A DNA stretch of 64,000 bases, taken from assembly GCA_964016885.1 (NCBI GenBank), contig OZ024741.1, positions 170,686,001-170,750,000 of the forward strand. Reading direction: 5' to 3'. The position numbers were made by a program, and so were the translations under genes. Source of the stretch: Eledone cirrhosa. Taxonomy: Eukaryota. The stretch's first letter is position 1; each line of letters begins with the position of its first letter. This document shows, one piece after another, positions 1,556 to 61,978 of this stretch. Under the pieces are notes generated by a model that had not been told where the DNA came from, did no database searches, and saw nothing but the letters and a program-made list of their open reading frames with translations.

Positions 1556-1910
1556 TTATAGATACTTCTAAAAGTCTTAGAGGGTCAATGAAAACAAGAG
1601 TTAAATAAATCTTTCTTTTTTTTTCATAGCATTCAAATTCTCGAGAGAGCCATATTCCGGTATGCGGGCGCTTTCGAATTCGTTCTCCAAGAGATTGAAT
1701 AGTCAATATTGTCTTTTAAGGACCAAATTAAATGTGAAAGTGTTGTTGAACATTTTTTGTCCGATCTATTAAATGTGTGTTTAAAGAATTATTTAACTCT
1801 TGTTTGCATCGACAGTCTAAGACTTTTAGAAGTATCTATAATTGTTGAGTGCTTCTAATCTGTTATAAACTAAATTTGCTGAATAATCAATAAATTAAAT
1901 AACTCATTGC
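1556..1910 (+). mobile_element. Old foldback insertion with ACTC/GAGT terminal hairpin
   Basis: 1556-1610 is the diverged reverse complement of ~1785-1842; ACTC 1796-1799 / GAGT 1847-1850; ends at (TA)n. Confidence 0.55.
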
Positions 1911-3149
1911 TTATATATATATATATATATGTGTGTATATATAGGTTTCAGTGGTGCCCATATCAAGTATAATATCCTATGTCTTGCAATCATATGCCTA
2001 CATCACGTATGTTATCTTCTTTGCCATGGCACCTTAGATGACTACCTATTACCGACATTGTTTAAGATTTTTTATGTTAGACGTGTTATAGTATTTGGTC
2101 AGCAGCATGGTCTGTACCTTTGTGCGTTCGTCCCAAATTAATGTTCAACCCGGCAGCAGATGTGGACACCTTTATTCATAAAATATAATAGAGCGAGGGT
2201 GGGACTGGCAGACATGCATATGAACGCCTTGTTTTTTCCTGCTATGTAATTCTTCATGAATAAGTTTATCGGTTTTTGAAAGTGTAATATGACCACAGGC
2301 AGTACAGCTGACATCAGTTTTAGACCCTCTGAGGTACGGAAGTTCAACTACAGTTGTCCGACGGAATTCGTGCTGGTTACTTTCCTAGAGCTGCCACGGA
2401 GAAAGCCATAAATAAATTGCGGAAGATATTTACGATTCCGCGAATATGCGGTTGTTTCCACTAACAATCATTAGTTAGATTCTAAGGAAAAACCCGCGAA
2501 TAACCGGGACCACAAATGTCGAGACAGCGAATGTTGGGGGTACACTGTACTTGGTAGTTTCGAATAGATCGATTCAGTATTTAGTGCGCAATTTGATTTT
2601 TCGGAAATCCTTATGTACATGCTGACAACCACTTCCATGATATATTTAATTAACAGAGCTAATATTCAATAACTTAAGAATATTCTTTGCGGCGTTACGG
2701 AACCGCTTTTGGGGGTTTGTGCAGAGAAAGTTTACCGAGTAATTCGCAATAAAGTTATTGCTTTAAGACAGGTGATATTACAACTCTGCTGCTCATATCT
2801 GATCGGATAAACTTCCATACTGTAACAGCTCACTCTCTCTCTCTTTCTTCTTCTTTCCTTTATTTATCACTGTCGCTTATTTCTTCCAATATAAATTTTT
2901 ATACAGTTAAAGGTGTATGTTTAATCGGTGGAGAGCATCTGAGTGTACGTGGTATTTGCTAGAGTATATTGGTCAATGTTACACACATCAATGAGACAAC
3001 CAGTATTTCTTCCGGTTCACAGTGATTTAAGTTTGAAATCTCCCTTAGGTCAAATTTAAATTTTATTTTTTCCTTGTCGATGACTAAAGTACCAGTGCAA
3101 GATGGCGAATTGGCAAAATTGTTTGAGTGCCTTTAATTATCTACTCCAG

Positions 3150-3230
3150 CACTTTGTTCCGATGGAACTGGACCACTATTATTGAAGGATTCAAGAAATC
3201 TTCTATGGGTTTGTCTAAACCAACGCAGAT
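3150..3230 (+). CDS. Candidate 81-nt phase 1-1 exon (LCSDGTGPLLLKDSRNLLWVCLNQRR)
   Basis: ctactccag acceptor, gtaagc donor, open frame, Cys-containing; no homology verified. Confidence 0.3.
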
Positions 3231-4227
3231 GTAAGCCGGAACAACAACACCATTCCTACAAAACTTTAACCATCTACCTATACCAGAAAATATTATAAAA
3301 TAAATAAATATGTTTTCTAAATTCAAAGTTTGCAGACTTGCAATATTATTCAACTGCAGTCAATAAAATAAGTCCGAGTTGTGTACTAGAATCGATTAAA
3401 TGCTTTGCTATTTTAATATAACAAAGACATGTTTATTTTAACTTCAATTTACCAATTATTTTCCCTGTGAGTGGAGTCTGTGAATTATTTTATTCTCGAA
3501 ATCAGAGGTTTCCAAAGTTTATACCGTGTCATTTTAGTGTTTCATCGATATTATCTAGATATGTAGCGAAATTTAGACACGTTACATTTCAACACTTGAT
3601 TGTTAAAGTCTGATATCATATTTAATTTGTTATTATTAATTTCGTTAATTTTGTGTCGCAGACAAAAATTGATTCTGTTTCGAAATATTCTCTTTTATTT
3701 TAAAAGGTGTTTCAGCAATATGGAATGTTTGGAAAGCTCTCCTAGTAAGCAATCCTATTTTTTATACGGCAACCAATGCTGAGTACATTTATAGAGTAAT
3801 TATTTCATCAAAGCCTCGACATACCCACTATCATTAAGTCTGAAACGTGTTCAGAGTTGTCTCCCGTATTTCATGCAATAATTAAAGGATTACGCATATA
3901 ATTGATACACAATTGGCTGAATATTTCACACACACATGTGTATTCAACATAATACTCAGAGGGATTCACACCGACGAAGTGTGCCACGTGTCCGACCCTT
4001 TGATTTACAAGTACAGTTCATCTGAATGGCTTCTAAATATTTTCCTTCTACACAGTTTTACTATATCCAAAGCAATGGAGAAAACAAAACACTTCATGCA
4101 TTAAGAACGAATAAAGAATCCCATGATAATGAAATGAACTTATAACCCATTTGGTCTTGTTGCGCCCATCAAGTGATTCTCATTCTCACCCCTTCTCTCC
4201 TGTGTATATATATATATACATTCAAGG

Positions 4228-4400
4228 TCACACACACACACACACACACACACACACACACACACACACACACACACACACACACACACACACGCGCGCA
4301 CACACACACACACACACACACACACACACACACACACACACACATACACACATACGCACACACGCACATATATATATATATATATATATTATATATTTAT
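4228..4400. repeat. (CA)n/(TA)n microsatellite
   Basis: Direct; source of the spurious HT/CV-rich ORFs. Confidence 0.95.
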
Positions 4401-58914: not shown

Positions 58915-59117
58915 ATAATGGTTTCTGATTGAGGCACAAGGCCATCAATTTGGCGGGAAGGAGAAAGTCAATTAAATTGACTCCAGTGGTACTTTATTTA
59001 ATCGACCCTGTAAGAATAAAAGGCAAAGTTTACCTCAGCGGGATTTGAACTCAGAATGTATAGGGACACAACTCTATACTGCGAAGCATGTTGTCCGACG
59101 CTCAACCGATTCTGCCA
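58915..59117 (-). mobile_element. Family A SINE
   Basis: Core and B-box match. Confidence 0.82.
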
Positions 59118-60059
59118 AAACAAAATAATATTCGTTTAGTCATAGGCTTACATAGGCCTACAGTGTTGATCTCAAAAACAACAACCACCACTTAGTTTCA
59201 ATGCGCCAAGAAAGAACTGCTAGAAAAAGCAGCCAACCCTCACTATAACCCCACCCTATTTCTTTTTAAAAAACAGAGACATTCGCTAATGGTGACTGAG
59301 ATATGCTGAAAATAAATTCTGTAATGGTATAACTAGAAATACTTTGATCACAGCCCTGCTTGGTCAAGGTTGACCAAAGAAACATTAACTACAGGTGAGA
59401 TACATATGGTGTTCATGGGGATGATTTCACTCTGGAAATCAATTTTCCCACTATGCTTAGTTGTTCAGTATGAACCATTTATTTTGTTTAGCTAAATTCT
59501 ACTACTTTATCTGATAAACACACCGTTATCTATCAGTCATCCAGCTGTTGGTGAAGCTTAGTACAGTAATTTCATGTTAGTTTATTTTTTTAAATAGTCG
59601 ACAAACAAATGCTTATCATTAGTACCACAAATAGACAAGCTGTTTACTTGGAGTAGAAAATCAATTTATCATCTCAGAGACCGAAATAAATAAACCAATT
59701 GAAGAATCGCGACATAGAATAAATATGTAAACAAGAACATTCAAATTCATGTAATAAACAGTTGACAGTGGAGCAGCTCTTGGCTAATGATATAATCTGT
59801 GTTTGTAGAAGTCTGACAAATGTAGTTCGTTGTTTCACTAATACGCAACTTACCGATGGTTCTGCTGAAGAATTGAATAGAATTCGTAACGTTTGCATTC
59901 CTTCAACTGTTGAAATGATTATATCCATTAATACAAAACACTATTCATATACAGCTTACACATATATATATATATATATATATATATATATATATATATA
60001 TATGAAAGACGTAAAATAAGAAAATTATAAAAGTTAACTTACTTACTAAAATTTCACTC

Positions 60060-60655
60060 CAACTAATAGGTATGCATAGGTATGCATCTGTATATATATA
60101 TGTTGGTAGATATACAATTCTTTATAATTATCTCCAAATTATTTTGTTGAGCAAAAATTTGCCAAAACTGCTACTATAGTTCATAGTAATAGTTCGGCTA
60201 CTGTCTTCTTAACACTCCACTTCTCACTGATTAACCTCGATGTCACGTGACTGATTCTTTTGAATTTGCCACCGACCAAATAGGCAGTGATTTTTTTTCA
60301 ATGTCTTGGAATTTAGTCCTCGCTTGCTTTTTTCCATCCACTGAATTATTTTTGTATAAGTTCCCTGTGTCCACGCATCGCCTGGGAACTTAGCTGAGAA
60401 TTGACTTCCTGATGACGAAAGGTATTCTCCATGTTGTTCCATTCGGAAACCATGTTTATTCCATTTCAGAAACTAATTAGTTGGACTGAAATTTTAGTAA
60501 GTAAGTTAATTTTTATAATTTTCTTATTTTACGTCTTTCATATTATTGTTCTGAATCCCCTTGCATTGAACCACAAAGTTACTAAGACAAAACCTATATA
60601 TTTGCTAGCATAGGTATGCATCTGTATATATATGTTGGTAGATATACTAATTCTT
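60060..60655 (+). mobile_element. Family H3 unit (~530 bp) with partial terminal repeat and hammerhead at 60406-60485
   Basis: CTGATGA c-gaaagg...ccatttc-a GAA ACTAATTAGT T gga; homologous to 19166-19824 but circularly permuted. Confidence 0.82.
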
Positions 60656-60954
60656 TATATATATATAACAGAACACACTCACTGTTTGGTTGGTTTTCGC
60701 TTTTCTCTTCTGTGTCTTTTATATCGGTTAATTTAATTTATTCGGTCCTCAATGACCAACGGTCAAAAATACAGATACAATATAGACACAAACATATATA
60801 TATAGGTTATCAAAGTTATAACAATATATATATATATATATATATATATATATATATATATATATATATATATATATATTCTTATATAAAGTTATAACAA
60901 TATATATATATATATATAGTCTATCAAAGTATAACAATATATATATATATATAT

Positions 60955-61978
60955 TTTGAGTATATGTTTGTTGTATACCAACACCTCAGTATGCACCTGG
61001 AGCACTCGACGAAGTGCGCAGGTTGGTTTGGTTACTCTGGAGTAATGTAAAATAAATTTAAATAAAAAGTCAAATGTTTAAAATTTAGCTTCGTTTATTA
61101 CTGTTATATATATTTCAGTGACAGCCATCTTTGGCTGTGACATCTTCAGGCAGTTTGAATTAGTGTGGTATAGACAAGTAGATATGTTGTTGAGGTGTAT
61201 AATTTTGTCAATACTCTCATATGCCCAGTTCCTGGTTGGGTTGTTATTTCACTGAGGAACTGGAATAATATGAATTCAAACAAACGAATTTCAGTGTCAA
61301 AGGGCGTCTTCTCCTCTCATTGGTCAGTTATTAGAACATTCCTCATTCTAAGTGTTGTTATTGTTGGAGTTAGCTTAAACAATTGATAAAGTGGTAGAAC
61401 GGACAAGGTGTTAAAGGAACAAAATAACAAAAAAGTGTCAAACTTCCCATTGATCAGTTATGAGAGCATTCCTGAGTCAGACGTCTATAGAATTCTTTCT
61501 GGGGTGAGGCTCCCTGTAGCCTCACCCCAGAAAGAATTCTATAGACGTCTGACTGAGGAATGCTCTCATAACTGACTAATGGGAAGTTTGACAATTTTTT
61601 TGTTATTTTGTTCCTTTAACACCTTGTCCCTTCTACCACTTTATCGATTTTTTAAGCTAACTCCAACAATAACAACACTTAGAATGAGGAATGTTCTAAT
61701 AACTGACCAATGAGAGGAGAAGAGGCCCTTTGACACTGAAATTCGTTTGTTTGAATTTATATATTATTCCAGTTCCTCAGTGAAATAACAACCCAACCAG
61801 GAACTGGGCATATGAGAGTATTGACAAAATTATACACCTCAACAACATATGTACTTGTCTATACCACACTAATTCAAACTGCCTGAAGAGGTGACAGCCA
61901 AAGATGGCTGTCACTGAAATATATATAACAGTAATAAACGAAGCTAAATTTAAAACATTTGACTTTTTATTTAACTTT
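60955..61978. mobile_element. ~920-bp palindrome (family H5) with a hammerhead in each arm (61100-61154 -, 61878-61932 +)
   Basis: Centre gaggct ccctgt agcctc at ~61515; actgc CTGAAGA 11-bp stem II GAA ATATATAT A acagt; terminal hairpin 61004-61043. Confidence 0.92.

Follow-up and report, generated by a model that had tools for sequence, protein, structure and literature searches.

A 64,000-nucleotide (nt) stretch of the Eledone cirrhosa genome (GenBank assembly GCA_964016885.1, contig OZ024741.1, positions 170,686,001 to 170,750,000 of the forward strand; hereafter 'the window', numbered from its first letter) carries Penelope-like elements (PLEs), and in these we find a short bulged stem that is a real, conserved element of the Hydra clade of PLEs, apparently undescribed, whose position predicts both ends of the optional 3' extension known as the PLE 'tail'. 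The motif usually occurs in two copies per pseudo-long terminal repeat (pseudo-LTR), here termed hp1 and hp2; its upper stem covaries, and insertions fall into two end classes, each about 6 nt before one of the copies. We suggest, with a probability of roughly 0.6, that it is an RNA signal which positions the starts of reverse transcription in these elements; as such it would be of a known kind, an RNA signal recognised by a reverse transcriptase (RT), in a new variant.

The conserved unit is 20-30 nt in size and reads RYUC (arm 1), then an upper stem that varies, a U-H bulge of 2 nt on the 3' side, GARY (arm 2) and lastly RCUYU, the last conserved and single-stranded; its 5' flank is A/U-rich. 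A first-pass annotation of the window had listed 16 RYTC/GARY arm pairs and proposed a conserved structural signal tied to PLE ends: all 16 pairs are present at their coordinates and strands, with the 10-47 nt between arms that it gave, and the proposal survives on position, covariation and recurrence in other hosts, albeit with four corrections. What had been described as a simple 4-bp hairpin, often followed by a non-Watson-Crick pair, in fact carries an upper stem and, on the 3' side, a bulge of 2 nt, and the apparent mismatch arises because the bulge was read out of register; U-H stands directly before arm 2 at 16/16 sites (TT 8, TA 4, TC 4) and an upper pair then forms at 15/16 (a rough chance figure of 6e-10 for bulge plus upper pair is overstated, as it treats related, hand-picked sites as independent). 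The compensation claimed for the outer pairs holds within this genome, where end-anchored clusters comprise 14 with ACTC/GAGT, 12 with GCTC/GAGC and one of each mixed form (Fisher p 8e-6); the A-U/G-C covariation of the lower stem is spread over related clusters and may reflect few events, and in other hosts that stem is near-invariant. The loops measure 2-60 nt and have paired flanks, which fits a folded single strand. As a separate observation, stem III of several Hydra hammerheads is ACTC-n-GAGT, with the same letters as the motif arms, whilst others differ (PMC8557442, the passages of File S2 available to us).

Arm pairs of four bases invite the objection that they are chance matches picked by eye, and the bare RYTC/GARY pair is indeed mostly background: the window holds 225, as against 162-201 in ten block-wise dinucleotide shuffles. 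It is position that counts. In a held-out set of 160 stretches of 10 kb (1.6 Mb) away from the window, insertion ends were set blind to hairpins, as (TA)n junctions whose homologues run on into shared sequence; from 48 families found, motif-blind filters dropped 25 and kept 23, and a strict pair lies 0-14 nt past the end in eight of these, compared with 4.2% of shuffles, 2.9% of random positions and 0-2/23 at shifted positions. Four of the eight positive families are without a match in the window. Tolerating G.U in the bare motif removes the discrimination (13/23 families, with shifted controls up to 10/23). The refined, bulged form is found in 12 of 33 families defined by inverted-repeat geometry, where bulges of 0, 1, 3 and 4 nt score 4, 2, 0 and 1, and in 31 of 4,950 shuffled tails, a comparison that is not independent, as the refined motif was derived from overlapping data. 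Chance pairing is refuted by these held-out families together with the prediction, other-host, flank-end and register tests described below, and we give it next to no weight.

The ends of the insertions are where the motif becomes predictive. Self-comparison shows sister copies of most window families stopping a few bases short of arm 1, at a (TA)n run, and comparison with all DNA fetched for the analysis finds such a stop at 12 of the 16 sites (none was found there for 1796, 4895, 48898 and 51691). Just past a family's long end, at 48117 and at 55572, stands a second copy; the 55572 hairpin, which had been listed as the motif of its family, is in fact this downstream hp2. A model of 'one motif past each end' was set down before it was tested on the coding element at 43993-46598. 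Genome copies of that coding family, which in the window ends at 41136(-), have hp1 at 8 nt beyond their short end and hp2 at 6 nt beyond their long end, as read from read-through copies, the tail being missing in the window; among 60 copies, some at overlapping loci, 23 are short-ended, 18 long-ended, 18 read through and one is unclassified. The hp1-to-hp2 interval is thus the PLE tail: two discrete 3' ends bound an optional extension, of 102 nt in the main family. The picture of one hairpin per tail, placed near the 3' end, gives way to that of two copies per pseudo-LTR, each directly downstream of an insertion end, hp1 being at the start of the tail. The motif had also been placed downstream of a hammerhead, which is seen for 5 of the 16 sites, where the same copy has an upstream core, and for none of the remainder.

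Allowing for target homology, an offset of -6 falls within the range of possible junctions in 149 of 263 copies and is the peak, offsets of -12 and 0 having 14 each (the 56 clusters behind this count include loose false matches). The main family is sharper, its long end lying at -7/-6 in 20/20 copies with one base of possible homology. Among contigs from other hosts that hold both pseudo-LTRs, one of them ending in host flank, 12 of 17 have the break at 0-6 nt before an arm, six at hp1 and six at hp2. At two individual loci, L210 folds back at hp1 and L205 has a 5' end near the short-end position.

Beyond this genome, a profile built from 55 homologues yielded 78 loci in metagenome assemblies, searched with a motif definition fixed beforehand; 69 loci with an untranslated region (UTR) of at least 150 nt were counted and nine left out. 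The motif is present in the sense UTRs of 56/69 loci and the antisense of 11/69, with 7-19 in 12 shuffles, and its density is 106 matches in 43 kb of UTR vs 13 in 159 kb of open reading frame (ORF). Clusters at below 70% protein identity give 31/42 (antisense 6/42) and those with an intact hammerhead-to-ORF segment 17/21, and the misses that were inspected are often outer-pair variants. Such segments (n = 36) hold two copies in 26 cases, one in eight and none in two; the hammerhead core is followed by hp1 at 69-103 nt in 31/34, hp1 and hp2 are 55-83 nt apart, and the ORF match follows hp2 by 34-51 nt in 22 of 26 loci. Judged by eye, published Hydra consensuses have the exact motif in three of six (a coral and two sea cucumber elements, one of them twice) and a partial one in the other three. 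A covariance model trained on other hosts alone places its best window match at the 48117 hp2 and recovers 10 of the 16 listed sites, with weak E-values (0.03-5) and antisense matches too.

The distance from hp2 to the ORF, along with the A/U-rich 5' flank, would also suit a role in expression, as a promoter or in translation of uncapped, hammerhead-cut RNA, the ends adjoining the motif only because an AT-rich stretch pairs with a (TA)n primer. The 20/20 placement of the main-family long end, with its single base of possible homology, and the absence of ends at other AT-rich stretches of these pseudo-LTRs make this very improbable in our view.

Covariation was judged mainly by a register test on 44 instances from 31 non-redundant UTR families, found by their lower arms alone (some are false instances) and hence blind to the bulge. 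With a 2-nt bulge the first upper pair is Watson-Crick in 35/44, against 1, 5, 12 and 10 for bulges of 0, 1, 3 and 4 nt; it is C-G in 26 and U-A in eight, none of 10,000 permutations being as good, and the second upper pair occurs in all four types (7/10,000), with the proviso that these permutations ignore shared ancestry. The bulge opens with U in 40/44, and arm 2 is followed by ACUCU; in metagenome loci L264-L341 the latter repeats arm 1, making GAG-YR-CTC nearly palindromic. A covariance model was also built from a seed of seven equal-length sequences, a 34-motif MAFFT alignment having failed to gap the loops, and statistics of the alignment fitted to it (0/500 shuffles, redundant copies included) are biased towards the structure.

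The elements that bear the motif are assigned to the Hydra clade by domain order, protein motifs, hammerhead and targets, a placement read from the sequence. The coding element has an RT followed by a C-terminal GIY-YIG domain; an RWK-like motif appears as RWR in L263, PADKT is present in both ORFs and CNCRVSANC in the window (DKT in place of DKG was read from the translations), and there is a hammerhead in the pseudo-LTR and insertion into (TA)n. These features are the same as those given for the Hydra clade of C-terminal endonuclease-containing (EN+) PLEs by Craig et al. (2021; PMC8557442), from whose available passages we took the clade definitions: RT then GIY-YIG, RWK-like, DKT and CxCX5C motifs, hammerhead and (TA)n targets. 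The tail differs, being given as 30-40 bp in those passages and measuring about 55-120 nt here, and the word 'hairpin' has no occurrence in the main text as available, which leaves the motif undescribed there. Eight other Hydra-type ORF starts of this genome were inspected, including those of the 52838 and 20531 families: five have hp1 then hp2 upstream (L016, L023, L069, L119 and L125+), a truncated copy (L047) has hp2 upstream, and the remaining two are joined to inverted or other sequence. Neither frame of the Hydra-type ORF matches Pfam and a sequence search found no solved structure for the protein; its predicted fold (mean predicted local distance difference test score, pLDDT, 92.7) has telomerase reverse transcriptase (TERT) structures as top matches, with TM-scores of 0.30-0.37, and such a modelled likeness is uninformative about the binding surface. 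No Hydra relatives were found in viral contigs.

As far as tested, the motif is confined to this clade, rather than shared by unrelated families as had been thought. The GTTTC/GAAAC stem of the 5.4/53-kb family, which had been counted with the others, belongs to a Neptune-type tail: that family groups with a 1,217-residue Neptune-type ORF, also has short and long ends, and is without the U-H bulge, and its GAAAC is not kept in a related coding family; the bulged motif is absent from both Neptune-type subfamilies of this genome. In the available parts of the published supplement (PMC8557442), 18 of 22 octamer matches fall in Naiad and Chlamys files and are without the stem, though line breaks there can hide matches, and together with the two Neptune-type subfamilies these passages speak against a signal common to all PLE clades. 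Of the Neptune-type family itself (L261(-); window 52999-53036(-), 12380-13677(-) and 51151-51693(-)), we note that the tail overlaps the ORF start, that both subfamilies have GTTTC starting 6 nt beyond their short end and that there is a second long end 6-9 nt before a small hairpin; judging from these letters, and post hoc, GTTTC and hairpin may be a different signal at the same spacing. Neptune relatives were not found in prokaryote genomes.

Synthesising these observations, we propose that the PLE protein may grip the bulged stem in RNA, which would be the strand that folds, and that reverse transcription would start about 6 nt upstream of it. By analogy with the Anolis element PAc, for which the available text of Frangieh et al. 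(2024; PMC11167929) describes reverse transcription starting from two sites inside the RNA, which correspond to the tail ends, and requiring RNA downstream of those starts, the insertion ends would be the points at which target-primed reverse transcription sets out from a (TA)n nick; recognition by the PLE protein is likewise an inference. A start at hp1 would give a short-ended copy and one at hp2 a tailed copy. The signal used would not itself be copied, such that a tailed copy would require an RNA whose 3' UTR continues into hp2, presumably either a tandem transcript or a hammerhead-made circle. We also entertain, tentatively and with a good deal less conviction, a 'portable ruler': the stem alone, bound like a telomerase RNA domain, would on any RNA fix the base 6 nt upstream as the first to be copied, a pair of such rulers would make the tail, and the upstream hammerhead would close an RNA circle on which starts near the 5' end give full-length and tandem copies.

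Several observations weigh against the motif being a start signal read in folded RNA. The stems are weak, the exact bulged fold being the minimum-energy structure in just 9/19 cases and the folding z-score -2 or lower in 5/19; a no-bulge register also scores in 29/69 loci; the third upper pair barely covaries (744/10,000 permutations); and the lower stem, G-C in 54/57 other-host instances, is near enough to invariant that it could be read as sequence. A strand signal in G.U vs A.C pairs is not significant (9 vs 11, or 11 vs 5 with p 0.21 for embedded pairs). As to position, 21 of 33 two-ended families are without the strict motif (among them are the Neptune-type family, copies that are decayed or variant, and AC-rich short tails from an unplaced clade), five of the 17 flank-ending copies miss, one of them (L305) with a variant arm, and the last 15 nt before hp1 take in 17 of the 220 5' ends that were mapped. 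The Anolis starts, moreover, lie inside a stem-loop that is AC-rich and is of another clade according to the available text (PMC11167929), which makes the analogy a loose one.

The 5' ends just before hp1 are not predicted by a model of starts alone, and they keep alive both a resolution of DNA and a cleavage of RNA. In the former, the motif would act in DNA, with the GIY-YIG endonuclease cutting longer-than-unit complementary DNA, or donor, some 6 nt before either inverted half-sites or a hairpin that is extruded, and the cut being joined to (TA)n. Passages available to us ascribe the tail to endonuclease resolution of an intermediate (Craig et al., PMC8557442) and cite the Drosophila Penelope endonuclease as needing the tail for recognition (PMC11167929); the lack of a significant G.U bias, the near-palindrome GAG-YR-CTC and the matches of the covariance model to antisense strands point the same way, as do the 5' ends at the same place. 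Against this, the centre of the near-palindrome is mostly C.A, spacers of 2-60 nt and a one-sided bulge are unfit for a double-stranded site, the motif is not in the inserted DNA of short-ended copies, and the sole full-length PLE protein tested, as described in the available text, started internally on RNA (PMC11167929). We regard action in DNA as unlikely, if the strongest of the competitors.

In the latter, a host nuclease, the PLE protein or the RNA itself would cut the transcript, or terminate it, some 6 nt before the stem, and copying would proceed from the new 3' end, as in ordinary LINEs (long interspersed nuclear elements). In its favour, the unit at 48028 in the window has its start at -6 exactly, the single-stranded RCUYU after the stem is conserved, and 5' ends show a slight excess near the short-end position, 17 at -15 to 0 vs 12 at -45 to -16 with eight from a truncated reference left out, an excess that is small and includes duplicated loci. 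On the other side, Rfam covariance models gave no match in the window at the gathering score (hepatitis delta virus-like and other small ribozymes included) or in six other loci at E up to 1, and the Anolis protein is described, in the text available, as using the same internal sites whatever the RNA 3' end (PMC11167929). This we also consider unlikely, slightly more so than action in DNA, and continue to favour a signal that positions the starts of reverse transcription.

Short structured RNAs by which an RT picks its start are familiar from the 3' stem-loops of R2 and of L2-type LINEs and SINEs (short interspersed nuclear elements), and from hepadnavirus epsilon. LINE 3' signals lie 5' of the start and get copied, and epsilon priming is templated inside its bulge. 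Here, in contrast, the end lies outside the stem, the stem used would remain uncopied and there are two in series; whereas a LINE-type signal is present in every 3'-intact copy, short-ended copies here are without the motif. Going by the available passages on PAc, of the Poseidon clade (PMC11167929), the two systems are alike in having two ends with an optional tail, a need for downstream RNA and an AT-rich target, and differ in that each end here has its own downstream stem at a fixed distance, the PAc stem-loop being compared by its text description. The template boundary element of telomerase RNA is, on the part of the source available (PMC4993307), likewise a small helix next to the template whose foot carries conserved bases; it lies 5' of the template and stops copying, whereas our motif, placed 3' of the insertion end, would determine where copying starts.

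A description of the motif was not found in the available passages of the open PLE literature (PMC11167929, PMC8557442, PMC7229834, PMC4209133 and PMC6765202; subscription papers and Repbase notes were outside the search), and 'hairpin', 'stem' and 'tail' do not occur in the accessible portion of bioRxiv 10.64898/2026.07.22.740005. Both the one-sided tail of PLEs and the RNA feature that chooses internal starts are still to be explained; starts were mapped in the in vitro study of 2024, which, in the passages available, named no binding motif (PMC11167929). A motif kept across distant hosts at a fixed distance from both ends offers exact mutations for testing. PLE enzymes are the closest telomerase relatives, and a template-flanking RNA element bears on the origin of internal templating; the motif also serves as a clade marker and as a means of setting the boundaries of Hydra elements.

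Among individual sites, hp1 copies are at 22961..22985 (+), where 12 sister copies stop 7-9 nt before arm 1 (an extra copy of this family's motif is at 40234..40258 (-)), and at 19309..19332 (+), a GTTC/GAAC variant where six stop 8-9 nt before. At the hp1 of 18965..18983 (-) sister copies stop at (TA)n around arm 1, and the motif recurs at 22266..22284 (-), a copy absent from the earlier list. The hp1 at 20531..20576 (+) belongs to a family linked to a Hydra-type ORF at L119, and that at 52838..52861 (-), with an extra copy at 47305..47328 (-), to one linked at L069; at both loci hp2 follows the long end. For the hp1 at 4895..4919 (-) the short end is seen in the held-out relative L052 alone, and no sister short-ended copy was found for the long-loop motif at 1796..1850 (+). 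The hp1 at 21009..21060 (+) is on the 3' side of a Hydra-type ORF fragment, and an inverted copy stops just before it; that at 48898..48931 (+) likewise has an inverted copy, stopping about 9 nt before. The hp1 at 39984..40025 (+) has a GCTT/GAGC variant in a tandem copy at 39295..39336 (+); the 'H1' to which ACTT/GAGT and GCTT/GAGC variants had been attributed could not be identified.

The coding element at 43993..46598 (+) is 5'-truncated and consists of two open frames (RT, then GIY-YIG) with DKT and CxCX5C; its hammerhead (core 41218) and short end lie at 41136..41222 (-), the hp1/hp2 tail being absent there. The 48574..48598 (+) hp1 has its hp2 at 48117..48156 (+), just past the long end, and a further hp1 at 48034..48058 (+), which belongs to a tandem insert's upstream unit and stands 6 nt after that unit's beginning. 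This non-coding insert, at 47608-48650, comprises one 540-nt unit plus tail; its direct copy begins 6 nt before hp1 and its inverted copy at the 3' arm of hp2. In the 55572 family, hp1 is at 55493..55518 (+), with a U-G bulge and a second copy at 56050-56075, and hp2 at 55572..55589 (+), where two sister copies stop at a (TA)n run whose start is 6 nt before; an inverted copy of the latter is at 54920..54937 (-), and the copy with hp1 at 51691..51716 (-) has a long end that falls, when mapped on a related copy, just before its 55572 hairpin. The hp1 at 54256..54281 (+) has its first upper pair broken, and those at 57102..57141 (+) and 61004..61043 (-) lie 102 and 106 nt after their hammerhead cores. 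The GTTTC/GAAAC stem at 52999..53036 (-) is the Neptune-type one and not the motif. Refined-motif matches with long loops at 33439-33515(-) and 36445-36496(-), without sister copies or nearby ends, may be chance.

Elsewhere in this genome, families I6, I8, I10 and I22 (e.g. L161, L110, L205 and L035) are two-ended (TA)n inserts with AC-rich tails of 38-62 nt and no motif. Within the window, an abundant, SINE-like repeat of ~170-190 nt with an A/T-rich 3' end occurs at 673-838 and about 15 other places, often nested with (TA)n inserts. Another non-LTR element has left an RT fragment (Pfam RVT_1) at 27200-28066(-), and an open frame at 25805-26215(+) resembles what we take to be a restriction-like endonuclease fragment of another such element. 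G-rich tandem arrays of 45-nt and 80-nt units occupy 14188-18115, with a strong GC skew, and microsatellites dominate the whole-window repeat search.

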